A DNA stretch of 64,000 nt from Mayamaea pseudoterrestris. Taxonomy: Eukaryota. This document shows positions 22,968-61,700 of the stretch, piece by piece (the stretch's first letter is position 1; each line of letters begins with the position of its first letter). A program made the position numbers and the translations under genes. The notes beneath the pieces are model-generated. The model searched no databases, had not been told where the DNA came from, and saw only the letters and a program-made list of their open reading frames with translations. The stretch spans positions 930,001 through 994,000 of the forward strand of contig BROI01000010.1 in the NCBI GenBank assembly GCA_027923505.1, given 5' to 3'.

Positions 22968-23557
22968 ATGAGTCGACTACTAGCAGCAGCTCCTATCGCA
23001 ATCCTTTGTTGCGCGCTCATCGTCATTTCGACGGTTGAAGCCTTTGCAATCACTACATCGCAGCGTCATGCAGCTTTTTCACACTCCTCCACTCGCTTAA
23101 ACATGGGCTGGATGGATGCCTTCAAGAATGATGACTCTCTTGGAAAGCCACAAAACGCTGGACTAACAAATGGGCCAACCTATAATGAGAATGTTTCGGT
23201 CAATGGCAAGACCGTTAATGGAGCAGTCGTTGGACAAAAGGTGCGCGACGTGACGCAACTTGGAATCAGTGACTCGTTTCGTTTTCCAAATTTCTCACTG
23301 GTACCTTCAATAGCTGACAGTCATTGCCGGCAAGGCAAGAGTCAAAATACCCGTCAATTGTCAGAAGGGAGATTGCGGAACGTGCGTTGTCAATTTGAAT
23401 GGAAGAAAAGTCAAAGGTGCGGACAGCAGTACACTAACTTATTCCGGAGTGGCCGTCTTCATTTTCACTCACGTCTGCATGATTCACATCCTTCCTCGTT
23501 ACTGCAGCTTGTCAGACGCCACTGCCAGCGGGAAAGGCTGCTATTCAAACGCTTTAA
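22968..23557 (+). CDS. Plastid-targeted small 2Fe-2S ferredoxin-like protein; exons 22968-23240, 23314-23416, 23508-23557
   Basis: Signal peptide plus EAF motif. The spliced product contains IPVNCQKGDCGTC..NGRKVKACQ (CX4CX2C..C). Two GT..AG introns; the Cys motif is not in the ORF track frame. Confidence 0.85.
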
Positions 23558-34870: not shown

Positions 34871-35394
34871 CAAACGCCCCATGCCCTGCCACCCAAATAG
34901 CCAATGAGTCAGGCAAAACCTGTCCAGGGTATGCCATTGACAGGTGCAGAGTCTCAAATGGTGCAAAAGGACGGCCTGGAGGCTGACACCATGGGTACGG
35001 CCTCCACTGTGGGTATGGCCAACACCACAAGTTGTAGATTCTTACCTGTCAAACGCCCCATGCCCTGGCCACCCAAATACCCAATGAGTCAGGCAAAACA
35101 TGTTCAGGGTATGCAATTGACAGGTGCAGAGTCTCAAATGGTGCAAAAAGGACTGCCTGGAGGCTGACACCATGGGTACGGCCTCCACTGTGGGTATGGC
35201 CAACACCACAAGTTGTAGATTCTTACCTGTCAAACGCCCCGTGCCCTGGCCACCCAACAACCCAATGAGTCAGGCAAAACATGTCCAGTGTGTGCCATTG
35301 ACATGAGGATGGTCTGACATGGTGCAAAACGGACTGCCTGGAGGCCTACACCATGGAATGGTCTGCAGGATGGGGTGGCCAACACCCTAAATTA
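34871..35394. repeat. Satellite A (~181-bp monomer), ~3 copies; the last is of the A-variant type
   Basis: CAAACGCCCCATGCCCTGGCCACCCAAATACCCAATGAGTCAGGC.. repeated; the third copy carries GACATGAGGATGG and AAATTATG variants also seen after 62.3 kb. Confidence 0.9.
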
Positions 35395-35532
35395 TGAGAC
35401 TGGTGACAAGTTGTCACCAAATACATTGCCATCCCCTGAGACACCATCCAAGCCTACCATGTTGTAGCACAGCCTGAATAAGGATGTTGGCACCATTCTG
35501 GTTCTTTTTGGGCACCTACAGGTCTTGCTGTA

Positions 35533-37517
35533 TGACACAATATTATTGAGTTGAGTTGACCTGCGTCTTATGACAAGACGGTTAGCTACCTGTGTTTTTG
35601 TATGCATTTAATCCTGTGCAGGGTTGAGTCACACTTGTGACCGAATCCTCACATACATGAGTGAAATCGCTGACGATCGAGGCGTGAACCTCGACCGTGA
35701 ACCCAGTGAGAACGAGAAAGAAGCGCACGAGTAGAGTAGCGAGTAACATGCACTATTCTAGCAATTGAGTTTGTTTGTTTGCTTTACGCTGGACGAAGAG
35801 GTTGATCGCTCCGAGTCCATTGTAGTCGCTGGAATAAAGGTTCGTCTGATATTATCGTGTCAGATTAACAGTCTTGCTAGCTTGTCTTGACCTGAGAGAG
35901 CTGTGCGAAAGAGAGAGAGTAATCGACAGAAATCTAGGAGAAAGAGCAGATTCCTTGCGGCGTCGTCAATCCGAATACTTGGCACGAGCCGCAGAACAGG
36001 TATCGTATAAAGCTCACTGCATTGCAGAGCTTGTTCGTGAAGAAGGACTTGGCAAGCGAGGTATACACATCATGGTTGGCCATTACTGCGGAAGCTTTGC
36101 GGCATCTCTGCACGAGGACGAGACATCCAAGAAGCGTTCTTGTTTTGGAATGTACCACCACTACGCCAGACTGTTGACAATTGTCACCAAATACATTGCC
36201 ATCCCCTGAGACACCAACCAAGCCTACCATCTTGTAGCGCTGCCTGATTAATGATGTTGGCACCATTCTGGTGTATTTTGGGCCCCTACAGGGCTTGCTG
36301 TAGGGGCGTTTGAATGTCACGGCATCTGCGGGCTGAGACTGGTGACAAGTTGTCACCAAATACATCGCCATCCCCTGAGACACCATCCAAGCCTACCATG
36401 TTGTAGCACAGCCTGAATAAGGATGTTGGTACCATTCTAGTGTATGTTGGGCACCTACAGGGCTTGCTGTAGTGGCGTTTGAATGTCACGGCGGCGGGCT
36501 GGATCGGCGAACTGAGACTGGTGACAAGTTGTCACCAAATACTGCCATCCCCAGACAAGGCCTGCCATTTTGTAGCGCAGCCTGAATAAGATGTGGGCAC
36601 CATTCTGGTGTATTTTGGGCACCTACAGGGCTTGCTGAGGGCGTTTTTGAATGTCACGGCATCCGTGGGCTGCATGGCTGACAAGTTGTCACCAAACATT
36701 GCATCCCCTGAGACACCAGCCAAGCCTACCATCTTGTCGCGCAGCCTGATTAAGGATGTTGGCACCATTCTGTATTTTAGGCACCTACAGGGCTTGCTGT
36801 AGGGGTGTCACGGATCTGCGGGCTAAAACTGGTGAAGTTGTCACCAAAACCCCCTGAGACACCAGCCAAGCCTACCATCTTGTAGCGCAGCTTATGATTA
36901 ATGTAATGGCACCATTTGTGTGTATTTTGGGCGCGGGCTTGCTGTAGGGGCATTTGAATGTCATGGCTCGCTTTGCGGGCTGAGTGACACAATATTGCTG
37001 AGTTGAGCTGACCTGGTCTTATGACAAGACGGTTAGCTACCTGTGTTTTGTATGCATTTAATCCTGTGCAGGGTTGAGTCACACTTATGACGACGCATGC
37101 TGCGTTCCGACCCCTGATCATTCCGATTCTTTTCTGGAAGGGTGATACGGCAAACCGATCGTTGTCACAAGCCTAGATCAAGGGGGATGACACAATATTA
37201 TTGAGTTGAGTTGACCTGCGTCTTATGACAAGACGGTTAGCTACCTGTGTTTTTGTATGCATTTAATCCTGTGCAGGGTTGAGTCACACTTGTGACCGAA
37301 TCCTCACATACATGAGTGAAATCGCTGACGATCGAGGCGTGAACCTCGACCGTGAACCCAGTGAGAACGAGAAAGAAGCGCACGAGTAGAGTAGCGAGTA
37401 ACATGCACTATTCTAGCAATTGAGTTTGTTTGTTTGCTTTACGCTGGACGAAGAGGTTGATCGCTCCGAGTCCATTGTAGTCGCTGGAATAAAGGTTCGT
37501 CTGATATTATCGTGTCA
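35533..37517 (+). mobile_element. Ty1/copia LTR retrotransposon insertion 1: 5' LTR 35533-35862, PBS 35863-35876, PPT 37180-37187, 3' LTR 37188-37517; most of gag-pol absent in this sequence
   Basis: 330-bp direct repeats TGACAC..GTGTCA, TSD CTGTA at 35528-35532 and 37518-37522, AAGGGGGA immediately before the 3' LTR, pol tail FRPLIIPILFWKGDT..stop before the PPT, AATAAA inside the LTR. Confidence 0.9.
36985..37088 (+). mobile_element. Partial LTR copy (5' ~100 bp) with the same satellite junction as insertion 2
   Basis: GCGGGCTGAG|TGACACAATATT junction matches that at 38743; probably an assembly duplicate. Confidence 0.6.
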
Positions 37518-38742
37518 CTGTAGGGGCGTTTGAATGTCATGGCATCTGCGACTGAGACTGGTGACAAGTTGTCACCAAATATATTGCCATCCCCTGAGAC
37601 ACCAGCCAAGCCTACCATCTTGTAGCGCAGCCTGAATAATGATGTTGGCACCATTCTGGTGTATTTTGGGCACCTACAGGTCTTGCTGTAGGGGCGTTTG
37701 AATGTCACGGCATCTGCGGGCTGAGACTGGTGACAAGTTGTCACCAAATACATTGCCATCCCCTGAGACACCAGCCAAGAATGCCATCTTGTAGCGCAGC
37801 CTGAATAAGGATGTTGGCACCATTTGGGTGTATTTTGGGCACCTACAGGGCTTGCTGTAGGGGCGTTTGAATGTCACGGCATCTGCGGGCTGAGACTGGT
37901 GACAAGTTGTCACCAAATACATTGCCATCCCCTGAGACACCAACCAAGCCTACCATCTTGTAGCGCTGCCTGATTAATGATGTTGGCACCATTCTGGTGT
38001 ATTTTGGGCACCTACAGGGCTTGCTGTAGGGGCGTTTGAATGTCACGGCATCTGCGGGCTGAGACTGGTGACAAGTTGTCACCAAATACATCGCCATCCC
38101 CTGAGACACCATCCAAGCCTACCATGTTGTAGCACAGCCTGAATAAGGATGTTGGTACCATTCTGGTGTATGTTGGGCACCTACAGGGCTTGCTGTAGTG
38201 GCGTTTGAATGTCACGGCATCGGCGGGCTGAGACTGGTGACAAGTTGTCACCAAATACATTGCCATCCCCTGAGACACCAGCCAAGCCTGCCATTTTGTA
38301 GCGCAGCCTGAATAAGGATGTGGGCACCATTCTGGTGTATTTTGGGCACCTACAGGGCTTGCTGTAGGGGCGTTTGAATGTCACGGCATCCGTGGGCTGA
38401 GACTGGTGACAAGTTGTCACCAAATACATTGCCATCCCCTGAGACACCAGCCAAGCCTACCATCTTGTCGCGCAGCCTGATTAAGGATGTTGGCACCATT
38501 CTGGTGTATTTTAGGCACCTACAGGGCTTGCTGTAGGGGCGCTTGAATGTCACGGCATCTGCGGGCTAAAACTGGTGACAAGTTGTCACCAAATACATTG
38601 CCATCCCCTGAGACACCAGCCAAGCCTACCATCTTGTAGCGCAGCTTGATTAATGATATTGGCACCATTTGTGTGTATTTTGGGCACCTACAGGGCTTGC
38701 TGTAGGGGCATTTGAATGTCATGGCAGCATCTGCGGGCTGAG

Positions 38743-40028
38743 TGACACAATATTATTGAGTTGAGTTGACCTGCGTCTTATGACAAGACGGTTAGCTACC
38801 TGTGTTTTGTATGCATTTAATCCTGTGCAGGGTTGAGTCACACTTGTGACCGAATCCTCACATACATGAGTGAAATCACTGACGATCGAGGCGTGAACCT
38901 CGACCGTGAACCCAGTGAGAACGAGAAAGAAGCGCACGAGTAGAGTAGCGAGTAACATGCACTATTCTAGCAATTGAGTTTGTTTGTTTGCTTTACGCTG
39001 GACGAAGAGGTTGATCGCTCCTAGTCCATTGTAGTCGCTGGAATAAAGGTTCGTCTGATATTATCGTGTCAGATTAACAGTCTTGCTAGCTTGTCTTGAC
39101 CTGAGAGAGCTGTGAGAGTGACAAGTTGTCATTAAATACATTGCCATCCCTGAGACACCAGCCACGCCTACTCATCTTAGCGCAGTCGAATAAGGATATT
39201 GGCACCTTTCTGGTGTATTTTTTGGCACCTAAGGCTTGCTGTAGGGGCGCGAATGTACGGCAGTGGCTGAGACTGGTGACAAGTTGTCACCAATGCATTA
39301 AGCACCTGAGAACCATCCAAGCCTACCATCTTGTAGCGCAGCCTGAATAATGATGTTGGTACCATTCTGGTGGGGAGTGTTGGGCACCTACAGGGTTGCT
39401 GTAGGGGGCGTTTGAACGTCGGCATCTGCGGGCTGAGACTGGAGGACAAGTTGTACCAATACATGAATCCCTTTCTTCTAGAGAGCACCAGCCAAGACTG
39501 CCATCTTGTAGCGCAGCTCTGAATTAAGGATGTTGGCACCATTCGCAGTGTATTTTGGGCACCTACAGGGGGCCAAGCAGAACGTTGCCGACGTTCTTAC
39601 CAAGTTCTTGCCGCATGCCACGTTCCGACCCCTGATCATTCCGATTCTTTTCTGGAAGGGTGATACGGCAAACCGATCGTTGTCACAAGCCTAGATCAAG
39701 GGGGATGACACAATATTATTGAGTTGAGTTGACCTGCGTCTTATGACAAGACGGTTAGCTACCTGTGTTTTGTATGCATTTAATCCTGTGCAGGGTTGAG
39801 TCACACTTGTGACCGAATCCTCACATACATGAGTGAAATCGCTGACGATCGAGGCGTGAACCTCGACCGTGAACCCAGTGAGAACGAGAGGAAAGCACCG
39901 CGAGAGTGCGAGTAACATGCACTATTCTAGCAATTGAGTTTTGTTTGTTTGCTTTACGCGACAAGGTTGATCGCTCCTAGTCCATTGTAGTCTACTGGAA
40001 TAAAGGTTCGTCTGATATTATCGTGTCA
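38743..40028 (+). mobile_element. Ty1/copia LTR retrotransposon insertion 2: 5' LTR 38743-39071, PBS from 39072, RNase H tail 39575-39694, PPT 39698-39705, 3' LTR 39706-40028
   Basis: Same LTR family. 39575-39694 reads KQNVADVLTKFLPHATFRPLIIPILFWKGDTANRSLSQA*, containing the copia RNase H ADxLTK motif. TSD CTGAG on the left and C-GAG (1-nt deletion) on the right. Confidence 0.88.
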
Positions 40029-42162: not shown

Positions 42163-43906
42163 TTGACCTGTCAAACGCCCCATGCCCTGGCCACCCAAAT
42201 ACCCAATGAGTTAGGCAAAACATTCCACGGTATGCCATGGATAGGTGCAGAGTCTCAAATGGTGCAAAAAAGGACTGCCTGGAGGCTGACGCCATGGGTA
42301 CGGCCTCCACTGTGGGTATGGCCAACACCACAAGTTGTAGAATCTGACCTGTCAAACGCCCCATGCCCTGGCCACCCAAATACCCAATGCGTCAGGCAAA
42401 ACCTGTCCAGGGTATGCCATTGACAGGTGCAGAGTCTCATAATGGTGCAAAAAGGACTGCCTGGAGGCTGACACCATGGGTACGGCCTACACTGTGGGTA
42501 TGGCCAACACCACAAGTTATAGATTCTGACCTGTCAAACGCCCCATGCCCTGGTCACCCAAATACCCAATGAGTCATGCAAAACATGTCCAGGGTATGCC
42601 ATTGACAGGTGCAGAGTCTCAAATGGTGCAAACAGGACTGCCTGGAGGCTGACACCGTGGGTACGGCCTCCACGTGGGTTTGGCCAACACCACAAGTTGT
42701 AGATTCTGACCTGTCAAATGCCCCATGCCCTGGCCACCCAAACTCCCAATGAGTCAGGCAAAACATGTCTAAATTATGCCATTGACAGGTGCAGAGTCTC
42801 AAATGGTGCAAAAAGGACTGCCTGGAGGCTGACACCGTGAGTACTTCCGCCTCCACTGTGGGTATGGCCAACACCACAAGTTGTAGATTCTGACCTGTCA
42901 AACGCCCCATGCCCTGGCCACCCAAATACCCAAAAAGTCGGGCAGAAAAATGTCCAGGGTATGCCATTGACAGGTGCAGAGTCTCAAATGGTGCCATAAG
43001 GACTGCCTGGAGGCTGACACCATGGGTACGGCCTCCACTGTGGGTGTGGCCAACACCACAAGTTTTAGAATTCTGACCTGTCAAACGCCGCATGCCCTGG
43101 CCACCCAAATACCCAATGAGCCATACAAAACATGTCCAGGGTATGCCATTGACAGGTGCAGAGTCTCAAATGGTGCAAAAAGGACTGCCTGGAGGCTGAC
43201 ACCATGGGTACGGCCTCCACTGTGGGTATGGCCAACACCACATGTTGCAGATTCTTCCCTGCCAAACGCCCCATGCCCTGGCCACCCAAATACCCAATGA
43301 GTCAGGCAAAACATGTCCAAAGTATGCCATTGACAGGTGCAGAGTCTCAAATGGTGCAAAAAGGACTGCCTGGAGGCTGACACCATGGGTACGGCCTCCA
43401 TGGTAAGTATGGCCAACACCACAAGTTTTAGAATTCTGACCTGTCAAACGCCCCATGCCCAGGCCACCCAAATACCCAATGAGTCAGGCAAACCATGTCC
43501 AGGGTATGTCATTGACAGGTGCAGAGTCTCAAATGGTGCAAAAAGGACTGCATGAAGGCTGACACCATGGGTATGGCCTCCACTGTGGGTATGGCCAACA
43601 CCACAAGTTTTCAATTCTTACCTGTCAAACGCCCCATGCCCTGGCCACCCAAATACCCAATGAGTCAGGCAAAACATGTCCAGGGTATGCCATTGACAGG
43701 TGCAGAGTCTCAAATGGTGCAAAAAGGACTGCCTGGAGGCTGACACCATGGGTACGACCTCCACTGTGGGAATGGCCAACACCACAAGTTGCAGATTCTT
43801 CCCTGTCAAACGCCCCATGCCCTGGCCACCCAAATACCCAATGAGTCAGGCAAAACATGTCCAGGGTATGCCATAGACAGGTGCAGAGTCTCAAATGGTG
43901 CAAAAA
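42163..43906. repeat. Satellite A (181-bp monomer), ~9.5 moderately diverged copies
   Basis: Tandem TGACCTGTCAAACGCCCCATGCCCTGG.. units at ~181-bp spacing. Confidence 0.95.
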
Positions 43907-43981: not shown

Positions 43982-46900
43982 ACAAGTGAATGCACTATGC
44001 ACTATAAATTTGTGACCTTGGATCATGCCCCAAGCCAGTTGACAAAGAGGTTGTGGGGATCTGATGTTTGCCGCTGCTAGGATAGGCAGTCACATAGTAC
44101 CTGCTAATTGAAGCTGCTGACCTGAAGGCAAAAGGCAAGCAGGAGGCTGATGCGCAAAACAAGTTCACCAAGGAGGTATGTCTTGTGCCCTCGGATCATG
44201 CACAGTGGCTGTGCGCATAGAGTGTGTGGGCATTTCATGTTTGCCACTGCTAGGTTGGTGTTCGGCAGTTGGGTAGTACATACCAGCAACTTCTGCGGAT
44301 CTGGAGGCAGGCAACTTGCAGGAGGCAAATGCACAAAGTGAATGCACTATACAATATCTATTTGTGACCTTGGATCATGTCCCAAGCCAATTGACAAAGA
44401 GGTTGTGGGGTTCTGATGTTTGCCGCTGCTAGGATAGGCAGTCACATAGTACCTGCCAACAGAAGCTGCTGACTTGAAGGCCAAGGCAAGCAGGAGGCTG
44501 ATGCGCAAACCAAATTCACCAAGAAGGTATGTCTTGTGCCCTTGGATCTTGCACAGTGGCTGTACGCATAGGGTGTGTGGGCACTTCATGTTTGCCACTG
44601 CTAGGTTGGTGTTCGGCAGTTGGGTAGCAGGTACCAGCAACTTCTGTGGATCTGGAGGCAGGCAACAAGCAGGAGGCAGATGCACGAAGTGAATGCACTA
44701 TACAATATTCATTTGTGACCTTGGATCATGCCCAAAGCCAGTTTACAAAGAGATTGTGAGGATCTGATGTTTGCCACTGCTAGGGTAGGCAGTCACATAG
44801 TATCTGCTAACTGAAGCTGCTGACCTGAAGGCAAAAGGCAAGCAGGAGGCTGATGCGCAAAACAAAATCACCAAGGAGGTATGTCTTGTGCCCTCGGATT
44901 ATGCACAGTGGCTGTACGCATAGAGTGTGTGGGCACTTCATGTTTGCCACTGCTAGGTTGGTGTTCGGCAGTTGGGTAGTACATACCAGCAACTTCTGCG
45001 GATCTGGAAGCAGGGACAAGCAAGAGGCAAATGCACATAGTGAATGAACTATACAATATCCATTTGTGACCTTGGATCATGCCCCAAGCCAGTTTACAAA
45101 TAGGTTGTGGGGATCTGAGGATAGGCAGTCACATAGTACCTGCCAGCTGAAGCTGCCGACCTAAAGGCCAAGGCAAGCAGGAGGCTGATGCGCAAACCAA
45201 TTTCACCAAGGAAGTATGTCTTGTGCCCTTGGATCATGCACAGTGGCTGTACGCATAGAGCATGTGGGCACTTCATGTTTGCCACTGCTAGGTTGGTGTT
45301 TGGCAGCTGGGTATACATACCAGCAACTCCTGTGGATCTGGAAGCAGGCAATAAGCAGGAGGCAAATGCACATAGTGAATGCACTCTACACTATCCATTT
45401 GTGACCTTGGATCATGCCCCAAGCCAGTTTACAAAGAGGTTGTGGGGATCTGATGTTTGTCACTGCTAGGGTAGGCAGTCACATAGTACCTGCCAACTGA
45501 AGCTGCTGACCTGAAGGCAAAAGGCAAGCAGGAGGCTGATGCGCAAACCAAATTCACCAAGGAGGTATGTCTTGTGCCCTTGGATCGGCGCAATTGTGTG
45601 GGCACTTCATGTTGCTAGGTACCAGCAACTCCTGCGGATCAATAAGCAGGAGGCAAATGCACAAAGTGAATGCACTATACAATATCCATTTGTGACCTTG
45701 GATCATGCCCCAAGCCAGTTTACAAAGAGATTGTGGGGATCTGATGTTTGCCACTGCTAGGGTAGGCAGTCACATAGTACCTGCTAACTGAAGCTGCTGA
45801 CCTGAAGGCAAAAGGCAAGCAGGAGGCTGATGCGCAAAACAAATTCACCAAGGAGGTATGTCTTGTGCCCTCGGATCATGCACAGTGGCTATAGAGTGTG
45901 GGCACATGTTTGCCACTGCTAGGTTGTTGCAGTTGGGTAGTACATACCAGCAACTTCTGCGGATCTGGAAGAAGCAGGAAAACAAGCAGGAGGCAAATGC
46001 ACAAAGTGAATGCACTATATCCAATATGACCGGCATGCCCATGCCATTTACAAGAGTGGGATATGTTTGCCACTGCTAGGAGTAGTACTGCTAACTGGAA
46101 GTGCTGACCCTGAGGCAAAGGCAAACAGAGGCGCAAAACTAATTCACCAAGGAGGTATGTCTTGTGCCCTCGGATCATGCACAGTGGCTGTACGCATAGA
46201 GTGTGTGGGCACTTCATGTTTGTCACTGCTAGGTTGGTGTTCAGCAGTTGGGTAGTACATACCAGCAACTCCTGCGGATCTGGAGGCAGGCAACAAGCAG
46301 GAGGCAAATGCACATAGTGAATGCGCTATACACTATCCATTTGTGACCTTGGATCATGCTCCAAGCCAGTTTACAAAGAAGTTGTGGGGATCTGATGTTT
46401 GCCACTTGTAGGGTAGGCAGTCACATAGTACCTGCTAACTGAAGCTGCTGACCTGAAGGCATAAGGCAAGCAGGAGGCTGATGTGCAAACCAAATTCACC
46501 AAGGAGGTATGTCTTGTGCCCTCGGATCATGCACAGTGGCTGTACGCATAGAGTGTGTGGGCACTTCATGTTTGCCACTGCTAGGTTGGTGTTCGGCAGT
46601 TGGGTAGTACATACCAGCAACTTCTGCGGATCTGGAAGCAGGCAACATGCAGGAGGCAAATGCACAAAGTGAATGCACTATACAATATCCATTTGTGACC
46701 TTGGATCATGCTCCAAGCCAGTTTACAAAGAAGTTGTGGGGATCTGATGTTTGCCACTGGTAGGGTAGGCAGTCACATAGTACCTGCCAACAGAAGCTGC
46801 TGACTTGAAGGCAAAAGGCAAGCAGTGCGCAAACCAAATTCTTCAAGGAGGTATGTCTTGTGCCCTTGGATCATGCACAGTGGCTGTACGCATAGAGTGT

Positions 46901-49900
46901 GTGGGCACTTCATGTTTGCCACTGCTAGGTTGGTGTTTGGCAGTTGGGTAGCAGGTACCAGCAACTCCTGCGGATCTGGAGGCAGGCAACAAGCAGGAGG
47001 CAAATGCACAAAGTGAATGCACTATACAATATCCATTTGTGACCTTGGATCATGCCCCAAGCCAGTTTACAAAGAGTTTATGGGGATCTGATGTTTGCCA
47101 CTGCTAGGGTAGGCAGTCACATAGTACCTGCTAACTGAAGCTGCTGACCTGAAGGCAAAAGGCAAGCAGGAGGCTGATGCGCAAAACAAATTCACCAAGG
47201 AGGTATGTCTTGTGCCCTTGGATCATGCACAGTGGCTGTACGCATAGAGTGTGTGGGCACTTCATGTTTGCCACTGCTAGGTTGGTGTTTGGCAGTTGGG
47301 TAGTACATACCAGGGAGACATGCGGGGAGGCAAATGCACAAAGTGAATGCACTACACAATATCCATTTGTGACCTTGCCCATGCCCGTTTACAAAGAGAT
47401 TGTGGATCTGATGTTTGCCACTGTATGCGTAGGCAGTCACATAGTACCTGCTAACTGAAGCTGCTGACCTGAAGGCAAAAGGCAAGCAGGAGGCTGATGC
47501 GCAAAACAAATTCACCAAGGAGGTATGTCTTGTGCCCTCGGATCATGCACAGTGGCTGTACGCATAGAGTGTGTGGGCACTTCATGTTTGCCACTGCTAG
47601 GTTGGTGTTCGGCAGTTGGGTAGTACATACCAGCAACTTCTGCGGATCTGGAAGTAGGCAACATGCAGGAGGCAAATGCACAAAGTGAATGCACTATACA
47701 ATATCCATTTGTGACCTTGGATTATGCCCCAAGCCAGTTTACAAAGAGATTGTGGGGATCTGATGTTTGCCACTGCTAGGGTAGGCAGTCACATAGTACC
47801 TGCTAACTGAAGCTGCTGACCTGAAGGCAAAAGGCAAGCAGGAGGCTGATGCGCAAAACAAAGTCACCAAGGAGGTATGTCTTGTGCCCTCGGATCATGC
47901 ACAGTGGCTGTACGCATAGAGTGTGTGGGCACTTCATGTTTGCCACTGCTAGGTTGGTGTTCGGCAGTTGGGTAGTACATACCAGCAACTTCTGCGGATC
48001 TGGAAGCAGGCAACATGCAGGAGGCAAATGCACAAAGTGAATGCACTATACAATATCCATTTGTGACCTTGGATCATGCCCCAAGCCAGTTTACAAAGAG
48101 ATTGTGGGGATCTGATGTTTGCCACTGCTAGGGTAGGCAGTCACATAGTACCTGCTAACTGAAGCTGCTGACCTGAAGGCAAAAGGCAAGCAGGAGGCTG
48201 ATGCGCCAAAACACAAATATCCAGGGGTTGTGTCGGTCACGCTCCAGGTGCACTTCTCCTTTTCGTGTAGTACATACCAGCAACTTTGCGGATCTGGAAG
48301 CAGGCAACATGCAGGGAGGCAATGCACAAAGTGAATGCACTATACAATATTCATTTGTGACCTTGGATCATGCCCAAAAGCCAGTTTTACAAAAGATTGT
48401 GAGGATCTGATGTTTGCCACTGCTAGGCGGCAGTCACATAGTACCTGCTAACTGAAGCAGTGACTGAAGGCAAAAGGCAAGCAGGAGGCTGATGCGCAAA
48501 ACAAAAACCAAGGAGGTATGTCTTGTGCCCTCGGATCATGCACAGTGGTTGCACATAGAGTTGGGTATCATGTTTGTTTATCTAGGTTGGTGTCGGCAGT
48601 TGGGTAGTACATACCAGCAACTTTTGCGGATCTGGAAGCAGGCAACATGCAGGAGGCAAATGCACAAAGTGAATGCACTATACAATATTCATTTGTGACC
48701 TTGGATCATGCCCAAAGCCAGTTTACAAAGAGATTGTGAGGATCTGATGTTTGCCACTGCTAGGGTAGGCAGTCACATAGTATCTGCTAACTGAAGCTGC
48801 TGACCTGAAGGCAAAAGGCAAGCAGGAGGCTGATGCGCAAAACAAAATCACCAAGGAGGTATGTCTTGTGCCCTCGGATCATGCACAGTGGCTGTACGCA
48901 TAGAGTGTGTGGGCACTTCATGTTTGCCACTACTAGGTTGGTGTTCGGCAGTTGGGTAGTACATACCAACAATTTCTGCGGATCTGGAAGCAGGCAACAT
49001 GCAGGAGGCAAATGCACAAAGTGAATGCACTATACAATATCCATTTGTGACCTTGGATCATGCCCCAACCAGTTTACAAAGAGATTGTGGGGATCTGATG
49101 TTTGCTTACTGTTAGGTAGGCAGTCAATAGTACCTGCTAACTGAAGCTGCTGACCTGAAGGCAAAAGGCGCGCAGAGTGATGCGCAAAATAAAACCAAGG
49201 AGGTGTTTGTGCTCGATCTCACATGGTGCTGCATAGAGTGTGTGGGCAATAGTTGAGGTTGGTGTTCGGAGTTGGGTGTACATACCAGCAACCTTGGATC
49301 TGGAAGAGGCAACATGCAGGAGGCAAATGCACAAAGTGAATGCACTATAAATATCCATTTGTGACCTTGGATCATGCCCCCAAGCCAGTTTACAAAGAGA
49401 TTGTGGGGATCTGATGTTTGCTACTGTTAGGTAGGCAGTCACAGCGTTAACTGAAGTTGTGACGAAGGCAAAAGGCAAGCAGGAGTGCTGATGCGCAAAA
49501 ATCAACAAAGGAGGTTGTTTGTGCCCTGGATCAGGAAGTACAGAGTGTGTGGGTATCATGTTTGCATGGTTGGTGTTCGTGCAGTTGGGTAGTACATTAC
49601 CAGCAATTCGATCTGCAGCAGCACATGAGGAGGCAAAGACAAAGTGAATGCAATACATATCCATTTTGACGATCATGCCCCAAGCCAGTTTACAACGAGA
49701 TTGTGGGGATCTGATGTTTACACTGCTAGGGTAGGCAGTCACATCGCATCAGCTAACTGGAAGCTGACCTGAAGGCAAAAGGCAAGAGAGGTGATGCGCA
49801 AAACAAAGTTCACCAAGAGGTATGTCTTGTGCCTCGGATCATTGGACAGTGGCTGTACGTGATAGAGGTGGGCATCATGTTTGGCACTGCAGAAATTATG

Positions 49901-52745
49901 TTCGCAAGGGCAGTACATACCAACAATTTCGGATCTGGAAGCAGGCAACAAGGAGGAAATGCACAAAGTGAATGCACATAAATATCCATTTGTACTTGGA
50001 TCATGCCCACCTTACAAAGAGATTGTGGGGATCCGATGTTTGCCACTGTTAGGGTGGGCAGTCACATTGTACCTGCTAACTGAAGCTGTTGAGGAGCAAG
50101 GCAAGCAGGAGGCTGATGCAAACAAATTCACTAAGGAGGTATGTCTGGTGCTCGGATCATGCACAGTGGCTGTACGCATAGAGTGTGGGATTGTTTGCTA
50201 CTGCTAGGTCGGTGTTCACAGTTGGGTAGTACATACCAGCAACTTCGGTGTGGAAGCAGGCAACATGAGGAGGAATGCACAAAGTGAATGCACTATACAA
50301 TATCCATTTGTGACCTTGGACTGTCCTGCAGTTTACAAAGAGATTGTGGGGATCTGATGTTTAAGCCACTGTTGGGTAGGCAGTCACATAGTACCTGCTA
50401 ACTGAAGCTGCTGACCTGAAGGCAAAAGGGCAAGCAGAGGCTGATAAAACAAAACAGAGGGGCGTGTCTTGTGCCTCGGATCAACAACAGTTGCAGAGTG
50501 TGTGGGCACATGTTAGCCACTGCTAGGTTGGGAGTTGGTACATACCAGCAACTTCTGGAAGCAGGCAACATGCAGAGGAAATGCACAAAGTGCATGCACA
50601 TGACAAACCATTGATCTGGATGGCCAAGTTACAAAGAGATGGGGATCTGATGTTTGCCATCGTAAGTAGGCAGTCGATATAGTATCAAGTAACTGAAGTG
50701 CTGACCTGAAGAAGGGAGGGATGCAAAAATTCACCAAGGGAGGTATATCTTGTGCCTCGATCATGCACAGTGGATGGGATCATGTACACCAGGTTGAGTG
50801 GGTAGTACATACCAGCAACTTTCTGATCTGGAAGCAGGCAACAACATGCAGGGAGGCAAATGCACAAAGTGAATGCACCATACAATATCCATTTTAACTG
50901 ATCATATGCCCCAAGCCAGTTTACAAAGAGATTAGATCTGATGTGCATTGCTAGGTAGGCAGTCACATAGTACTTGCTAACTGAAGCTGCTGACCTGAAG
51001 GCAAAAGGCAAGCAGGAGGCTGATGCGCAAAACAAATTGGAGGTCTGAAATCTGACCAGTGGTCAGGTATGCATAGATGCAGCACTGTGTGTTGGTGTGT
51101 TGAGTGTACATACCAGCAATTGGTGATTCTAAAGGCAACATGCAGGAGGCAAATGCACAAAGTGAATGCACTATACAATATCCATTTCAGACCTTGGATG
51201 TTTCCCGCCAGGCTTGCAAAGAGATTGTGGGGATCTGATGTAACACTGCTAGGTAGGCAGTCGTACCTGGTTAACTGTAGTTGCTACCTGAAGGCAAAAG
51301 GCAAGCAGGAGGCTGATGCGCAAAACAAATTCACCAAGGAGGTATGTCTAGCGGATTGGGCACAGTGGCTGTACGCATAGAGTGTATGGGACTTCATGTT
51401 TGCCACTGCTAGGTTGGTGTTCGGCAGTTGGGCAGTACATACCAGCAACTTCTGAGATCTGGAAGCAGGCAACATGCAGGAGAATGCAAAGTGATGCACA
51501 TATACAACATTCATTTGTGACCTTGGACTGGCTGCCCCAGAAGCCAGTTTACAAAGAGATGTCAGGGGATCTGATGTTTTGCCACTCGCTAGGTTAGGCA
51601 GTCACATAGTACCGTGACTGAAGCTGCTGACCTGAAGGCAAAAGGCAAGCAGGAGGCTGATGCACGCAAATACACAATTCACCAAAGAGGTATGTCTTTG
51701 TCCCCTCGGATCATGCACAGTGGCTCGCATAGAGTGTGTGGGCACTTCATGTTTCTGCCACTGCAGGTTGGTGTTCCCGGCAGTTGGGTGAGTACATACC
51801 AGCAACGCCAAGTCTGGAAGCAGGCAACATGCAGGAGGCAAATGCACAAAGTGAATGTAATTATACAATATCCACAAAATTGGATGCTCCAAGCAGTTTA
51901 CACAAAGAGATTTGTGGGATCTAGCTTTTTTCTGCCATCGGTAGGTAGCCTACACACTACACTGGAAGTGCTGACCTGAAGGCAAAAGGCAAAGCAGGAG
52001 GCTGGATGCAAAACAAATCTTCACCAAGGAGTGTCTTGTGCCTCGGATCATGCACAGTGGCTGTACACATAGAGTGTGTGGGGCAATTTCATGTTTGCCA
52101 CTGCTAGGCTGGTGTTCGGCAGTTGGGCAGTACATACCAGTAACTTCTATGGATCTGGAAGTAGGCAACATGGGCAGAGGCAAATACAATGTGCTAGAAT
52201 TATACAATATTCTTTTGTGCCTTGGATCATGCCCCAAGCCAGTTGTACAAAGAGATTGTGGGGATCTGATGTTTGCCACTGCTAAGGGTTGGCAGTCACA
52301 CTTGTCGTACCTGTAACTGAAGCTGCTGACCTGAAGGCAAAAGGCAAGCAGGAGGCTGATGCGCAAAACAAATTCATCCAGGAGGTATGTCTTGTGCCCT
52401 GGATCATGCACAGTGGCTGTACGCATAGAGTGTGTGTGGGCACTCCATGTTTGCCACTCTAGGTTGGTGTTCGCAGTTGGGTAGTACATACCAGCAACTT
52501 CGCGGATCTGGAAGCAGGCAACATGCAGGATGTAAAATGCACAAAGTGAATGCACTATAATAATATCCATTTGTGAGCTTGGATCATCCCAAGCCAGTTT
52601 ACAAAGAGATAGGGATCTGATGTTTGGCATCAATGCCGCTGACCTGAAGGCAAAAGGTGCTGGTGAGGCTGATGCGCAAAACAAATACACCAAGGAGGTA
52701 GTAAATTGTCGTATGCCACCACAGTGGCAGTACAAAGTGAAAGAA
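43982..52745. repeat. Satellite C (352-bp unit, a diverged 173+179-bp dimer), roughly 25 units
   Basis: ORF-track repeat spacing 47451 to 47803 = 352; paired half-motifs TTGTGACCTTGGATCATGC/TTGTGCCCTCGGATCATGC, and ATGTTTGCCACTGCTAGG twice per unit. Confidence 0.95.
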
Positions 52746-52757
52746 TTGGTGGGTGGC

Positions 52758-55700
52758 ACATGCAGATTCTTCCGTCAAAGCCCCATGCCTGGCCACCCAA
52801 ATACCCAATGAGTCCTCAATGACAGAAGTAAAAATATGTCCAGGGTAGGCCATTGACAGGTGCAGTTGAAAAAGGATGCCTGGAGGTGACAATGGGAGGA
52901 TTGGGTATGGCCAACACCACAAGTTGCAGATTCTCCCTGTCAAACGCATGCCCTGGCCACCCAAATACCCAATGAGTCAGGCAAACATGTGTGTCCAGGG
53001 GATATTGACAGGTGCAGAGTCTCAAATGGCAAAAAGGACTGAGGAAAACATGGTACGGATTGGGTGGTATGGCCAACACCACAAGTTGAGATCCTGTCAA
53101 ACGCCCCATGCCCTGGCCACCCAAATACCCAATGAGTCAGGCAAACATGTCCAGGGATGCCAGCTGACAGTGCAGAGTCAATGGAGTAAAAGGACTGCCT
53201 GGAGGCTGACACTGGGTACGTCTCCACTTGGGTATGGCCAACACCACAAGAAAGATTCTCAAAAGTCCATGCCCTGGCCACCCAAAACAATGAGTCAGGC
53301 AATACATGTCCAGAGTAGCTGGACAGGCGTCATGGTGCAAAAGGACTGCCTGGGAGGCTGAACCATGGGCACGGCTCAGTGGGTATTGGCCAACACCACA
53401 AGTTCGATTCTCCTGTCAAACGCCCATGCGGGTGCCTCAAATACCAATGAGTCAGGAAAACATGTCCAGGGGATGCCATTGACAGGGTTCTCTTGCCTTT
53501 TGGCACCCAAATACCGATGAGTCAGGGCAAAAAATGTCCAGTGCTTGACAGGTGCAATAGTTCATGGTGCAAAAAAGGACTGCCTAGGAGGGCTCCATGG
53601 GTATGGTCAACACCACAAGTTGTCAGATTCACCCCGTCAAACGCCCATGTCCGTGGCCACCCAAATACCAATGAGTCAGGCAAAATTCAGGGGGATTGAA
53701 GGTGCAGAGAGTCTCAAATGGTGCAAAAGGGACTGTGGGTGACACCATGGGCACGGCCTCCATGTGGGTTGGCCAACACCACAAGTTGTAGATTCTTCGT
53801 CAAACGCCCATGCTGGCACACAAATACCAATGAGTCAGGCCAAACATGTCCAGGGGATGACATTGACAGGTGCAGAGTCTCAAATGGTGCAAAAAGGACT
53901 GCCTGGAGGCTGACACCATGGGTACGCCTCATGTGGCCAACACACAAGTTGTCGATTTCTTCAACGCCCTGCCTGGCCACCCAAATACCCAACAGTCAGG
54001 CAAAACATGTCCAGGTTGCCATAGTGAAGTTCTGGTGCAAAAGGACTGCTGGAGGCTGACACGGGTTAGGGAGGCCAAACCACAAGTTGCCGACCTGTCA
54101 AACCCATGCCTGGGCCCACCCAAATACCCAATGAGTCAGGCAAAACATGTCCAGGGTATGCCATTGACAGGTGCAGAGTCCAAATGGTGCAAAAGGACTG
54201 CCTGGGAGGCTGACACCATGGGTACGGCCCCACGGTGGGTATGGCCAACACCACAAGTTGCAGATTCTCCTGTCAAACGCCCCATGCCCCACAAAACAAT
54301 GAGTCAGGCAAAACATGTCCAGGGTATGCCATTGACAGCTGCATAGTCTCCAAATGGTGCAAAGGACTGCTGAGGCTGAAGGTCTCCAGTGGATGGCCAA
54401 CACCACAAGTTGCAGATCTGCCCTGTCAAACGCCCCATGCCCTGCCACCCAAATACCCAATGAGTCAGGCAAAAATGTCCGGACAAGACTGTGAGGGACA
54501 AGGGCATGCCATGTGGGTATGGCCAACACCACAAGTTGGATCTTCGTCAAACCGCGGCAAAAACCAAAGTCAGGATGTCCGGATGCTGACAGGTAGTCAA
54601 ATGGTGCAAAACTGCCGAGGCTGACAACCAGGGTAGGCCTCCACTGTGGAGTATGGCCAACACACAAGTTGTCAGATTTTCCTGTCAAACGCCCCATGCC
54701 CGGCCACCCAAATACCCAATGAGTCAGGCCAAACATGTCCAGGGTATGCATTGACAGGTGCATAGTCTCAAATGGTGCAAAAAAGGACCGCCTGAGGGAC
54801 ACCATGGGCACGGCCCCACGTGGGTATGGCCAACACCACAAGTTGCGACCCCTGTCAAACCCCCATGCCGGCCACCAAATACCCAATGAGTCAGGCAAAA
54901 CATTTCCAGGGGATGCATTGACAGGTGCATAGTCTCAAATGGTGCAGAAAGGACTGCCTGAGGGAACCAGGGTAGTCCATGTGGGTATGGCCAACACCAC
55001 AAGTTGCAGATCTCCCTGTCAAAGCCTGGCCACCAAAACCCAAGAGTCAGGCAAAACATGTCCAGGGTATGCATTGACAGGTGATAGTCTCAAATGGTGC
55101 AAAAAGTGACTGCGAGGCTGACAAAGGGTAGGGCTCCAGTGGGTATGGCCAACACCACCAGTTGCAGATCATCCGTCAAACGCCCCATGCCTGGGCCACC
55201 CAAATACCAAGTCAGGCAAATGTCCAGGGGATGCATTGACAGGTGCAGAGTCTCAAATGGTGCAAAAAGGACTGCCTGAGGCTGACAACATGGGTAAGGC
55301 CTCCACTGTGGGTATGGCCAACACCACAAGTTGCAGATTTCCCTGTCAAACGCCCATGCTGGCCACCCAAATACCCAATGAGTCAGGCAAAACATGTCCA
55401 GGGTATGCCATGGACAGGTGCATAGTCTCAAATGGTGCAAAAAGGACTGCCTGGAGGCTGACACCACTGTGGGTATGGCCAACACCACAAGTTGCAGATT
55501 CTTCCCTGTCAAACGCCCCATGCCCTGGCCACCCAAATACCCAATGAGTCAGGCAAAACATGTCCAAGGATTGGATTTACAGATGCAATATCTCAAATGG
55601 TGCAAAAAGGACTGTGAGGTGACAACATGGGTACGGCCTCCACGGTGGGTATGGCCAACACCACAAGTTGTCGATTCTGACCTGTCAAACGCCCCATGCC

Positions 55701-58700
55701 CTGGCCACCCAAATACCCAATGAGTCAGGCAAAACATGTCCAGGGTATGCCATTGACAGGTGCAGAGTCTCAAATGGTGCAAAAAGGACTGCCTGGAGGC
55801 TGACACCATGGGTACGGCCTCCACGGTGGGTATGGCCAACACCACAAGTTGTCGATTCTGACCTGTCAAACGCCCCATGCCCTGGCCACCCAAATACCCA
55901 ATGAGTCAGGCCAAACATGTCCAGGGTATGCCATTGACAGGTGCAGAGTCTCAAATGGTGCAAAAAGGACTGCCTGGAGGCTGACACCATGGGTACGGCC
56001 TCCAGGGTGGGTATGGCCAACACCACAAGTTGTCGATTCTGACCTGTCAAACGCCCCATGCCCTGGCCACCCAAATACCCAATGAGTCAGGCCAAACATG
56101 TCCAGGGTATGCCATTGACAGGTGCATAGTCTCAAATGGTGCAAAAAGGACTGCCTGGAGGCTGACAACATGGGTACGGCCTCCACGGTGGGTATGGCCA
56201 ACACCACAAGTTGTCGATTCTGACCTGTCAAACGCCCCATGCCCTGGCCACCCAAATACCCAATGAGTCAGGCCAAACATGTCCAGGGTATGCCATTGAC
56301 AGGTGCATAGTCTCAAATGGTGCAAAAAGGACTGCCTGGAGGCTGACACCATGGGTACGGCCTCCACGGTGGGTATGGCCAACACCACAAGTTGCAGATT
56401 CTGACCTGTCAAACGCTCTTATGCCCTGGCCACCCAAATACCCAATGAGTCAGGCCAAACATGTCCAGGGTATGCCATTGACAGGTGCATAGTCTCAAAT
56501 GGTGCAAAAAGGACTGCCTGGAGGCTGACACCATGGGTACGGCCTCCACGGTGGGTATGGCCAACACCACAAGTTGTCGATTCTGACCTGTCAAACGCCC
56601 CATGCCCTGGCCACCCAAATACCCAATGAGTCAGGCCAAACATGTCCAGGGTATGCCATTGACAGGTGCATAGTCTCAAATGGTGCAAAAGGACTGCCTG
56701 GAGGCTGACACCATGGGTACGGCCTCCACGGTGGGTACGGCCAACACCACAAGTTGTCGATTCTGACCTGTCAAACGCCCCATGCCCTGGCCACCCAAAT
56801 ACCCAATGAGTCAGGCCAAACATGTCCAGGGTATGCCATTGACAGGTGCATAGTCTCAAATGGTGCAAAAAGGACTGCCTGGAGGCTGACACCATGGGTA
56901 CGGCCTCCACGGTGGGTATGGCCAACACCACAAGTTGTCGATTCTGACCTGTCAAACGCCCCATGCCCTGGCCACCCAAATACCCAATGAGTCAGGCCAA
57001 ACATGTCCAGGGTATGCCATTGACAGGTGCAGAGTCTCAAATGGTGCAAAAGGACTGCCTGGAGGCTGACACCATGGGTACGGCCTCCACGGTGGGTATG
57101 GCCAACACCACAAGTTGTCGATTCTGACCTGTCAAACGCCCCATGCCCTGGCCACCCAAATACCCGATGAGTCAGGCAAAACATGTCCAGGGTATGCCAT
57201 TGACAGGTGCAGAGTCTCAAATGGTGCAAAAAGGACTGCCTGGAGGCTGACACCATGGGTACGGCCTCCACGGTGGGTATGGCCAACACCACAAGTTGTC
57301 GATTCTGACCTGTCAAACGCCCCATGCCCTGGCCACCCAAATACCCAATGAGTCAGGCCAAACATGTCCAGGGTATGCCATTGACAGGTGCAGAGTCTCA
57401 AATGGTGCAAAAAGGACTGCCTGGAGGCTGACACCATGGGTACGGCCTCCACGGTGGGTATGGCCAACACCGCAAGTTGTCGATTCTTTACCTGTCAAAC
57501 GCCCCATGCCCTGGCCACCCAAATACCCAATGAGTCAGGCCAAACATGTCCAGGGTATGCCATTGACAGGTGCATAGTCTCAAATGGTGCAAAAAGGACT
57601 GCCTGGAGGCTGACACCATGGGTACGGCCTCCACGGTGGGTATGGCCAACACCACAAGTTGTCGATTCTGACCTGTCAAACGCCCCATGCCCTGGCCACC
57701 CAAATACCCAATGAGTCAGGCAAAACATGTCCAGGGTATGCCATTGACAGGTGCATAGTCTCAAATGGTGCAAAAAGGACTGCCTGGAGGCTGACACCAT
57801 GGGTACGGCCTCCACGGTGGGTATGGCCAACACCACAAGTTGTCGATTCTGACCTGTCAAACGCCCCATGCCCTGGCCACCCAAATACCCAATGAGTCAG
57901 GCCAAACATGTCCAGGGTATGCCATTGACAGGTGCAGAGTCTCAAATGGTGCAAAAAGGACTGCCTGGAGGCTGACACCATGGGTACGGCCTCCACGGTG
58001 GGTATGGCCAACACCACAAGTTGTCGATTCTTACCTGTCAAACGCCCCATGCCCTGGCCACCCAAATACCCAATGAGTCAGGCCAAACATGTCCAGGGTA
58101 TGCCATTGACAGGTGCATAGTCTCAAATGGTGCAAAAAGGACTGCCTGGAGGCTGACAACATGGGTACGGCCTCCACGGTGGGTATGGCCAACACCACAA
58201 GTTGTCGATTCTGACCTGTCAAACGCCCCATGCCCTGGCCACCCAAATACCCAATGAGTCAGGCAAAACATGTCCAGGGTATGCCATTGACAGGTGCATA
58301 GTCTCAAATGGTGCAAAAAGGACTGCCTGGAGGCTGACACCATGGGTACGGCCTCCACGGTGGGTATGGCCAACACCACAAGTTGTCGATTCTGACCTGT
58401 CAAACGCCCCATGCCCTGGCCACCCAAATACCCAATGAGTCAGGCCAAACATGTCCAGGGTATGCCATTGACAGGTGCAGAGTCTCAAATGGTGCAAAAG
58501 GACTGCCTGGAGGCTGACAACATGGGTACGGCCTCCACGGTGGGTATGGCCAACACCACAAGTTGTCGATTCTTACCTGTCAAACGCCCCATGCCCTGGC
58601 CACCCAAATACCCAATGAGTCAGGCAAAACATGTCCAGGGTATGCCATTGACAGGTGCAGAGTCTCAAATGGTGCAAAAAGGACTGCCTGGAGGCTGACA

Positions 58701-61700
58701 CCATGGGTACGGCCTCCACGGTGGGTATGGCCAACACCACAAGTTGTGATTCTGACCTGTCAAACGCCCCATGCCCTGGCCACCCAAATACCCAATGAGT
58801 CAGGCCAAACATGTCCAGGGTATGCCATTGACAGGTGCAGAGTCTCAAATGGTGCAAAAGGACTGCCTGGAGGCTGACACCATGGGTACGGCCTCCACGG
58901 TGGGTATGGCCAACACCACAAGTTGTCGATTCTGACCTGTCAAACGCCCCATGCCCTGGCCACCCAAATACCCAATGAGTCAGGCCAAACATGTCCAGGG
59001 TATGCCATTGACAGGTGCAGAGTCTCAAATGGTGCAAAAGGACTGCCTGGAGGCTGACACCATGGGTACGGCCTCCACGGTGGGTATGGCCAACACCACA
59101 AGTTGTCGATTCTTACCTGTCAAACGCCCCATGCCCTGGCCACCCAAATACCCAATGAGTCAGGCCAAACATGTCCAGGGTATGCCATTGACAGGTGCAG
59201 AGTCTCAAATGGTGCAAAAAGGACTGCCTGGAGGCTGACACCATGGGTACGGCCTCCACGGTGGGTATGGCCAACACCACAAGTTGTCGATTCTTACCTG
59301 TCAAACGCCCCATGCCCTGGCCACCCAAATACCCAATGAGTCAGGCCAAACATGTCCAGGGTATGCCATTGACAGGTGCAGAGTCTCAAATGGTGCAAAA
59401 GGACTGCCTGGAGGCTGACACCATGGGTACGGCCTCCACGGTGGGTATGGCCAACACCACAAGTTGTCGATTCTGACCTGTCAAACGCCCCATGCCCTGG
59501 CCACCAAAATACCCAATGAGTCAGGCCAAACATGTCCAGGGTATGCCATTGACAGGTGCAGAGTCTCAAATGGTGCAAAAAGGACTGCCTGGAGGCTGAC
59601 ACCATGGGTACGGCCTCCACGGTGGGTATGGCCAACACCACAAGTTGTCGATTCTGACCTGTCAAACGCCCCATGCCCTGGCCACCCAAATACCCAATGA
59701 GTCAGGCCAAACATGTCCAGGGTATGCCATTGACAGGTGCAGAGTCTCAAATGGTGCAAAAGGACTGCCTGGAGGCTGACACCATGGGTACGGCCTCCAC
59801 GGTGGGTATGGCCAACACCACAAGTTGTCGATTCTGACCTGTCAAACGCCCCATGCCCTGGCCACCCAAATACCCAATGAGTCAGGCAAAACATGTCCAG
59901 GGTATGCCATTGACAGGTGCAGAGTCTCAAATGGTGCAAAAAGGACTGCCTGGAGGCTGACACCATGGGTACGGCCTCCACGGTGGGTATGGCCAACACC
60001 ACAAGTTGTCGATTCTGACCTGTCAAACGCCCCATGCCCTGGCCACCCAAATACCCAATGAGTCAGGCAAAACATGTCCAGGGTATGCCATTGACAGGTG
60101 CAGAGTCTCAAATGGTGCAAAAGGGCTGGCCTGGAGGCTGACACCATGGGCACGGCCTCCACGGTGGGTATGGCCAACACCACAAGTTGTCGATTCTGAC
60201 CTGTCAAACGCCCCATGCCCTGGCCACCCAAATACCCAATGAGTCAGGCCAAACATGTCCAGGGTATGCCATTGACAGGTGCAGAGTCTCAAATGGTGCA
60301 AAAAGACAAGTTGTCGATTCTGACCTGTCAAACGCCCCATGCCCTGGCCACCCAAATACCCAATGAGTCAGGCAAAACATGTCCAGGGTATGCCATTGAC
60401 AGGTGCAGAGTCTCAAATGGTGCAAAAGGACTGCCTGGAGGCTGACACCATGGGTACGGCCTCCACGGTGGGTATGGCCAACACCACAAGTTGTCGATTC
60501 TGACCTGTCAAACGCCCCATGCCCTGGCCACCCAAATACCCAATGAGTCAGGCCAAACATGTCCAGGGTATGCCATTGACAGGTGCAGAGTCTCAAATGG
60601 TGCAAAAAGGACTGCCTGGAGGCTGACACCATGGGGTACGGCCTCCACGGTGGGTATGGCCAACACCACAAGTTGTCGATTCTGACCTGTCAAACGCCCC
60701 ATGCCCTGGCCACCCAAATACCCAATGAGTCAGGCCAAACATGTCCAGGGTATGCCATTGACAGGTGCAGAGTCTCAAATGGTGCAAAAAGGACTGCCTG
60801 GAGGCTGACACCATGGGTACGGCCTCCACGGTGGGTATGGCCAACACCACAAGTTGTCGATTCTGACCTGTCAAACGCCCCATGCCCTGGCCACCCAAAT
60901 ACCCAATGAGTCAGGCCAAACATGTCCAGGGTATGCCATTGACAGGTGCAGAGTCTCAAATGGTGCAAAAGGACTGCCTGGAGGCTGACACCATGGGTAC
61001 GGCCTCCACGGTGGGTATGGCCAACACCACAAGTTGTCGATTCTGACCTGTCAAACGCCCCATGCCCTGGCCACCCAAATACCCAATGAGTCAGGCCAAA
61101 CATGTCCAGGGTATGCCATTGACAGGTGCAGAGTCTCAAATGGTGCAAAAAGGACTGCCTGGAGGCTGACACCATGGGTACGGCCTCCACGGTGGGTGTG
61201 GCCAACACCACAAGTTGTCGATTCTGACCTGTCAAACGCCCCATGCCCTGGCCACCCAAATACCCAATGAGTCAGGCCAAACATGTCCAGGGTATGCCAT
61301 TGACAGGTGCAGAGTCTCAAATGGTGCAAAAAGGACTGCCTGGAGGCTGACACCATGGGTACGGCCTCCACGGTGGGTATGGCCAACACCACAAGTTGTC
61401 GATTCTGACCTGTCAAACGCCCCATGCCCTGGCCACCCAAATACCCAATGAGTCAGGCCAAAACATGTCCAGGGTATGCCATTGACAGGTGCAGAGTCTC
61501 AAATGGTGCAAAAGGACTGCCTGAGGCTGACACCATGGGTACGGCCTCCACGGTGGGTATGGCCAACACCACAAGTTGTCGATTCTGACCTGTCAAACGC
61601 CCCATGCCCTGGCCACCCAAATACCCAATGAGTCAGGCCAAACATGTCCAGGGTATGCCATTGACAGGTGCAGAGTCTCAAATGGTGCAAAAAGGACTGC

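Follow-up and report, generated by a model that had tools for sequence, protein, structure and literature searches.

How does a Ty1/copia family begin minus-strand synthesis when its 5' long terminal repeat (LTR) is not followed by a conventional site for a tRNA 3' end? This question is raised by a 64,000-nt stretch of the diatom Mayamaea pseudoterrestris genome (assembly GCA_027923505.1, contig BROI01000010.1, forward-strand positions 930,001 to 994,000; hereafter the window), in which two copia-type elements, A (35533-37517) and B (38743-40028), lie within satellite DNA. The same 14 nt, GATTAACAGTCTTG, follow the 5' LTR of each element. They are probably the minus-strand primer-binding site (PBS) for a half-tRNA-Asn(GUU) in a diatom Ty1/copia lineage. 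The original prediction, made from the letters of the window, had proposed that this family uses a cleaved tRNA-Asn half, and comparative sequence evidence supports that proposal.

The site behind the 5' LTR and its match to the tRNA-Asn anticodon arm

In both elements, the first base of the 14-mer comes right behind the terminal CA of the LTR (…GTGTCA). The plus strand of the window holds two exact copies, at 35863-35876 in element A and 39072-39085 in element B, which are not independent because both belong to one family. TGG is absent from the 45 nt downstream of each 5' LTR; therefore, neither element has a conventional tRNA 3'-end PBS. A sequence search and a reading of both junctions thus confirm the earlier claim that the 5' LTRs run straight into the 14-mer without a TGG. 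A third match (12 of 14 bases, CATTAACGGTCTTG) is found on the minus strand at 23207-23220, with no LTR around it. The expectation from shuffles is 0.44 matches of this quality, and it is treated as a chance occurrence unrelated to the elements.

The reverse complement of the 14-mer, CAAGA-CUGUUAA-UC, reads as part of an anticodon arm. It contains the anticodon loop in full, with the stem's 5' strand on one side and the initial two bases of its 3' strand on the other. Metagenome contigs were scanned for CAAGACTGTTAATCTT accompanied by a T-loop motif at tRNA spacing, and tRNAs were called with ARAGORN in the 78 loci obtained. In 72 of them, from many organisms, the call is tRNA-Asn(gtt) with CAAGACTGTTAATCTT beginning at tRNA position 27. 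The PBS 14-mer therefore corresponds, at 14 of 14 positions, to nt 27-40 of real tRNA-Asn genes, and its complement is indeed a common tRNA-Asn(GUU) anticodon arm, as originally stated. U39 and C40 of the arm pair with A31 and G30, as the anticodon stem requires, and nt 40 is the partner of the first PBS base. The next base after the element A site, C 35877, would pair too if the host tRNA has G26.

The match is specific. Among 170 tRNAs predicted in the loci, the 98 that are not tRNA-Asn reach 11 of 14 positions at best (Ile, Lys), and the only exact matches are Asn. The anticodon complement reads GUU (Asn) and not CAU, so the site does not indicate an initiator tRNA-Met (iMet) primer. When the 3' ends of 170 non-host tRNAs were compared with the 40 nt after the LTR, the best complement covered 8 of 12 positions. 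A better partner than the anticodon arm was thus not found among these 3' ends, nor at the start of the transcript of the element itself, considered below.

Three tRNA-Asn loci with the exact arm (L021, L055, and L064) lie amid tightly packed open reading frames (ORFs) that by eye resemble genes for sigma factors and Hsp20. These contigs are probably phage genomes carrying tRNA-Asn. They had been taken for eukaryotic tRNA genes on a guess from a T-run 3' of the gene, an assignment that was dropped given the packed ORFs.

The position of the match suggests how priming would proceed. Hemiviruses start complementary DNA (cDNA) at the 3'-OH of nucleotide 40, according to the available part of PMC1181622, and the nt 27-40 match ends in stem bases 39-40 in the same register, as had been predicted. 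A cytoplasmic tRNA-Asn primer would be cut between nt 40 and 41, placing the 3'-OH of C40 opposite the first PBS base, adjoining U5. Reverse transcriptase would then extend C40 into U5-R to yield minus-strand strong-stop DNA, as is reported for copia and Ty5 with a fragment of tRNA-iMet. This model predicts that the host encodes a tRNA-Asn(GUU) with the arm CAAGACUGUUAAUCUUG.

Conservation of the site and the identity of its partner

The affiliation of the family is given by element B, which retains 41 C-terminal pol residues (GAKQNVADVLTKFLP...) that are 98% identical to the C-terminus of a 313-aa M. pseudoterrestris protein (P0001). P0001 has 1,881 longer relatives at E <= 1e-5, and among those listed, 120 of 120 carry PF07727 RVT_2, the Ty1/copia reverse transcriptase (RT) domain. 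A rescan for RVT_2 returned E = 4.6e-23 for P0005 and E = 3.9e-25 for P0018. In P0018, a weak rve match (591-651; 20.8 bits, below the 32.6-bit cut-off) lies upstream of RVT_2 (1096-1307), and D..D..E-like conserved columns are visible by eye upstream of the RT in an alignment of 24 full-length polyproteins (A1). A Pfam scan found no family in P0001-P0004 because these proteins span only the RNase H tail. Given RVT_2 in the relatives and the 98% identity of the pol remnant, the family is copia and the window copies are its gutted derivatives. Alignment A1 also contains a conserved block, YKGSSYNVLV.WEDGSET..EPL, between the integrase-like region and the RT, which Pfam leaves unnamed in P0005 and P0018.

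A search of a prokaryote species-genome set with A1 returned 36 eukaryotic copia contigs (L080-L115). They are apparently of diatom type and were mis-binned in at least 20 bacterial species-representative metagenome-assembled genomes, 14 of the 36 in one bin, which reflects bin contamination. In seven of these loci (L086, L087, L089, L090, L091, L096, and L101), CA is followed directly by the 11-nt core GATTAACAGTC. All seven occurrences are in the pol direction and none is on the other strand, with 0.07 expected by chance over 154,590 bases. The motif lies upstream of gag or behind a collapsed LTR that starts GGGGAG/TGACA. A search of the same bins added an eighth confirmed motif-bearing relative, L150; L125, L127, L129, L130, and L141 carry the motif without a Gag/Pol match and were left out of the count. 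Viral contigs searched with A1 gave no match, and L079, a phage-like contig from a P0001 search of viral contigs, was discarded as spurious, having neither LTR nor motif.

The motif-bearing relatives are 50-57% identical to the window family in the RNase H region, and the midpoint root of a 27-row RNase H tree separates some of them from the others. Of the new evidence, this conservation in relatives is the strongest. The Asn PBS appears to be ancestral to a large diatom copia lineage. LTR ends and leaders around the motif differ between relatives. A constant 11-mer amid divergent LTRs and leaders is the pattern to be expected if the site pairs with a trans-acting RNA that is itself conserved.

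This pattern bears on Tf1-like self-priming, in which the transcript of the element would supply the primer: its cleaved 5' end would pair with the PBS. At position 42 of the LTR, CAAGACGGTTAGCT can form 10 of 14 Watson-Crick pairs with the PBS, and it lies ~30 nt past an AT-rich stretch that looks TATA-like by eye. However, 181 of 2000 shuffles of the PBS reach 10 of 14, as do 21 of 291 14-mers from the leader. The mismatches also fall at the LTR-proximal end, where the 3' end of a primer must pair, and the best self-complement in the relatives L089 and L091 is 9 of 14. A PBS core that stays constant while the LTRs diverge points instead to a trans-acting partner. With no significant PBS-LTR complement in the window, L089, or L091, self-priming was rejected as extremely improbable.

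Alternatively, the 11-mer could be a cis element with no role in priming, serving integrase end recognition, packaging, or dimerisation. Its tRNA likeness would then be coincidental, and the primer or its site would be another. The 11-mer can fold as a 2-bp/7-nt mini-hairpin, and a further semi-conserved block lies downstream of it in relatives. The evidence for priming is also entirely of sequence, which tells equally against a tRNA-Asn primer. On the other hand, the motif sits exactly at the place required of a PBS, and it is the only tRNA-like site within 45 nt. It reproduces the full anticodon loop (U33, GUU, A37-A38) together with pairing stem bases in the nt-40 register. By our own arithmetic, the chance of an 11-mer matching any of ~45 arms in ~3 registers is of the order of 3e-5. 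A purely cis-acting role is therefore unlikely.

The downstream block itself resembles G[TC]TA(A)CGCT and follows the 14-nt site in L086, L087, L096, L101, and L105, where the window has CTAGCTTG. It could be a second primer contact or a leader structure.

Several observations among the relatives weigh against a tRNA-Asn primer. The conserved core faces tRNA nt 30-40, and the three bases past it, facing nt 27-29, vary (TTG, TCA, GTA, GCA, ACA). The TTG form is shared by the window, L087, L090, and L096, whose PBSs are identical to the window's. Conservation of the site, proposed in the original prediction as a check, thus holds for the 11-nt core in 7 of 36 relatives and L150, but not for the distal three bases. 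The variable bases could reflect different host tRNA-Asn stems or a constraint on 11 nt only. TTG and TCA variants occur together in one bin, whose TTG locus (L127) is without a Gag/Pol match; co-variation with the stems of host tRNAs is therefore only a possibility. A search of 20 bins for eukaryotic tRNA-Asn returned none; what it turned up was bacterial tRNA-Asn genes and further copies of the PBS. In ~10 loci, the junction between LTR and interior can be seen. Among them, L099 (4228-4243) has a 1-nt insertion in the core (CA followed by GATTAACTAGTC), and L105 (3752-3766) has two changes (GATTACCAGCC; CA followed by GATTACCAGCCGCA), with a complement that would read anticodon GGU. In L082, the junction is ambiguous. 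The variant sites of L105 and L099 may be decayed sites or may mark a primer switch.

The host tRNA provides further evidence on both sides. The 64-kb window contains no tRNA gene, and sequencing runs X1, X2, X4, and X6 were mapped to L021:930-1090 (tRNA-Asn gene 973-1048, arm 1001-1017). Runs X1 and X2 contain the window's genes; X1, from which the window itself possibly derives, does not count as independent evidence. Each of these two runs gave one 418-nt contig, aligned over 980-1036 (57 nt, arm included) with four mismatches and one deleted T. The contig ends complete a tRNA: GCACCAT / ATGGTGC forms an acceptor stem, followed by G73 as the discriminator base and by a TTTT trailer. One end implies a T-stem with CCAAT, where at least one of the mismatches must lie, and L060, in which the arm is intact, also differs from L021 at exactly four places over the same stretch. 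An intact host arm is therefore fully compatible with the data, and we infer that the host tRNA-Asn would carry it.

Other features of the mapping count against this reading of the host arm. The places of the four mismatches in the 418-nt contigs are unreported, and the host arm may differ from the PBS complement. Even a closely similar tRNA is conceivable for the contig, for example Lys(CUU), which can have an arm one base different from that of Asn. L021 looks phage-borne, so what it shares with the host contig is the general resemblance of tRNAs. Runs X4 and X6 gave no match on the L021 tRNA reference.

The unproven identity of the 418-nt contig also leaves room for internal priming by another host tRNA with a near-identical arm, such as tRNA-Lys(CUU) or Ile, with a mismatch tolerated. 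Lys and Ile reach 11 of 14 in the same register, and the PBS of the fungal copia element FunCo1, ATTAAGAGTCT, which the accessible text of PMC5445492 assigns to a tRNA-Lys internal region, is one base from the window core. However, the window and all eight confirmed relatives have C opposite anticodon position 34. This base suits the G34 of Asn but not the C34 of Lys, and the sole exact 14/14 matches are Asn. Another tRNA is very unlikely to be the partner.

Two gutted elements in a satellite array

From ~34.8 kb onward, the window consists of satellite DNA with periods of 181, 169, and ~352 bp. The 181-bp tandem array occupies 34871-35356, 42164-43906, and 55464-64000, and the ~352-bp array occupies 43984-50483. 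The copia derivatives are insertions in the 169-bp array, whose blocks lie between 36168 and 42162. A 329-330-bp repeat with a TGACAC start and a GTGTCA end is found at 35533-35862, 37188-37517, and 38743-39071, and a 94% copy of it at 39706-40028. These repeats pair into elements A and B, whose features are all on the plus strand. Both have the same internal order, namely PBS, leader, 169-bp satellite, and 3' pol remnant, with the polypurine tract AAGGGGGA against the 3' LTR.

Element A has the anatomy of an LTR element, including TG...CA ends, a 5-bp target-site duplication, and a polypurine tract adjoining the 3' LTR. Its 330-bp LTRs (TGACAC...GTGTCA; 35533-35862 and 37188-37517) are identical at 330 of 330 positions. 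CTGTA stands on either flank, at 35528-35532 (TTGCTGTA before the LTR) and at 37518-37522 (CTGTAGGGGC past the 3' LTR), and the uninterrupted satellite monomer has one CTGTA only; because the target is satellite, this duplication is weaker evidence than usual. Behind the PBS, complementary to tRNA-Asn(GUU) nt 27-40, a leader or 5' internal remnant of ~290 nt (35877-36167) is unique sequence until the satellite junction at 36168. The segment 36168-37091 consists of captured 169-bp satellite (~4.9 units) and a fragment corresponding to LTR positions 1-109 (107 bp, 36985-37091). It is followed at 37092-37187 by a 3' pol remnant with the polypurine tract (37180-37187), homologous to 39612-39705 of element B.

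The interior of element A from 36168 to 37091 is 91% identical to 37893-38850, which comprises satellite and the first 108 nt of the element B 5' LTR. Element A is a mosaic. It is either a mobilised mosaic non-autonomous element or the recombination product of insertions at equivalent satellite positions; it nevertheless has identical LTRs and matching flanks.

The 5' LTR of element B (38743-39071) is 98.9% identical to the 5' LTR and leader of element A over 376 bp. The same 14-mer PBS (39072-39085) is followed, within 39086-39568, by a short leader (~30 nt, to ~39117) and then 169-bp satellite. The last 41 pol codons and the stop lie at 39569-39694, and the polypurine tract at 39698-39705 adjoins the 3' LTR (39706-40028; 94% identical to the reference LTR). 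The GGGGAG/TGACA layout at this junction recurs in relatives. The flanks, CTGAG / C-GAG, form an imperfect 5-bp duplication, and the element's own two LTRs differ by 6%.

Neither element contains a gag or pol ORF save the 3' pol remnant, and both are internally deleted. They could therefore move only with proteins of autonomous relatives. The original description of a copia element was right about the family, but neither copy is a complete element; both are gutted and non-autonomous. This condition raises the possibility that the PBS is a decayed relic without present function, and the loss of gag and pol, the satellite inside both elements, and the 6% divergence of the element B LTRs fit such decay. 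However, the LTRs of element A are identical, its duplication is intact, and one and the same PBS occurs in both elements and in L087, L090, and L096. The present activity of two copies also has no bearing on what the site is. That the site is such a relic is quite unlikely.

Implications and relation to known half-tRNA systems

Standard LTR annotation seeks the PBS against tRNA 3' ends and would score an abundant diatom copia lineage as PBS-less. The 11-nt core behind CA offers a simple marker of the 5' ends of this lineage, and it worked on contigs hidden in bacterial bins. A broader and doubtful extension is that the whole widespread lineage, represented by the 1,881 related proteins, would have used a tRNA-Asn 5' half cut at nt 40/41 since its origin, with the distal PBS bases tracking the host stem. 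If so, the nuclease that makes tRNA-Asn halves would gate retrotransposition, and the activity of the elements would be coupled to tRNA cleavage that stress or nutrients induce in diatoms. Diatom copia elements are reported to respond to stress (accessible text of PMC2806351), and the tRNA-Asn proposal offers a test of the link between tRNA-half production and transposon activity in these algae.

No report of a half-tRNA-Asn PBS was found in the accessible parts of the literature searched, a search that did not extend to the supplementary tables of PMC6317226 or to Repbase/GyDB. In its available part, PMC7773854 mentions tRNA-Asn in a cancer context only. Literal PBS sequence fragments retrieved no papers on retroelements, as judged by title or abstract. 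PMC2806351, the diatom CoDi paper, does not take up PBSs or tRNAs in its main text. Table S3 of a P. tricornutum small-RNA paper lists read counts for Asn-GTT but gives no sequences and flags no fragment pattern. The novelty originally supposed thus stands for the Asn primer in the literature accessible to the search, but not for half or internal priming by tRNAs other than iMet, which is in print for Ile, Lys, and Arg. Asparagine would join Met, Ile, Arg, and Lys as a half or internal tRNA primer, and this mode of priming would extend to stramenopile algae.

Kikuchi 1986 and Ke 1999 are reportedly the papers cited for half tRNA-iMet priming. This mode is described for copia, Ty5, Osser, and 1731 in the available parts of PMC1181622 and PMC8515867. 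Like them, the window family is a Ty1/copia element with a PBS that adjoins the 5' LTR and pairs with an anticodon stem-loop in the nt-40 register. Unlike them, its primer would be tRNA-Asn(GUU) and not iMet, and its host is a diatom. Tf1/Sushi and TAR-type self-priming elements share with it the lack of a tRNA 3'-end PBS, but the window-family PBS has no significant complement in its own LTR.

Plant elements show that a half-tRNA PBS can characterize a lineage. In the accessible text of the REXdb survey (PMC6317226), Bianca has 1/2 tRNA-Ile and Osser/Bryco/Gymco-II have 1/2 tRNA-Met, lineage-wide, as appears to hold for the diatom elements. However, the half types given there are Met or Ile only, and tRNA-Asn occurs only as a 3'-end PBS (2% of elements). 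Candida families have PBSs that match internal regions of tRNA-Arg and iMet (PMC4139406, available part), thus resembling the window family in homology to a tRNA interior and not to a 3' end, but with another tRNA and a host of another kingdom. FunCo1 has nearly the same core. Its ATTAAGAGTCT and the corresponding ATTAACAGTCT differ only at the base opposite anticodon position 34, which gives CUU (Lys) in the fungal host and GUU (Asn) in the diatom.

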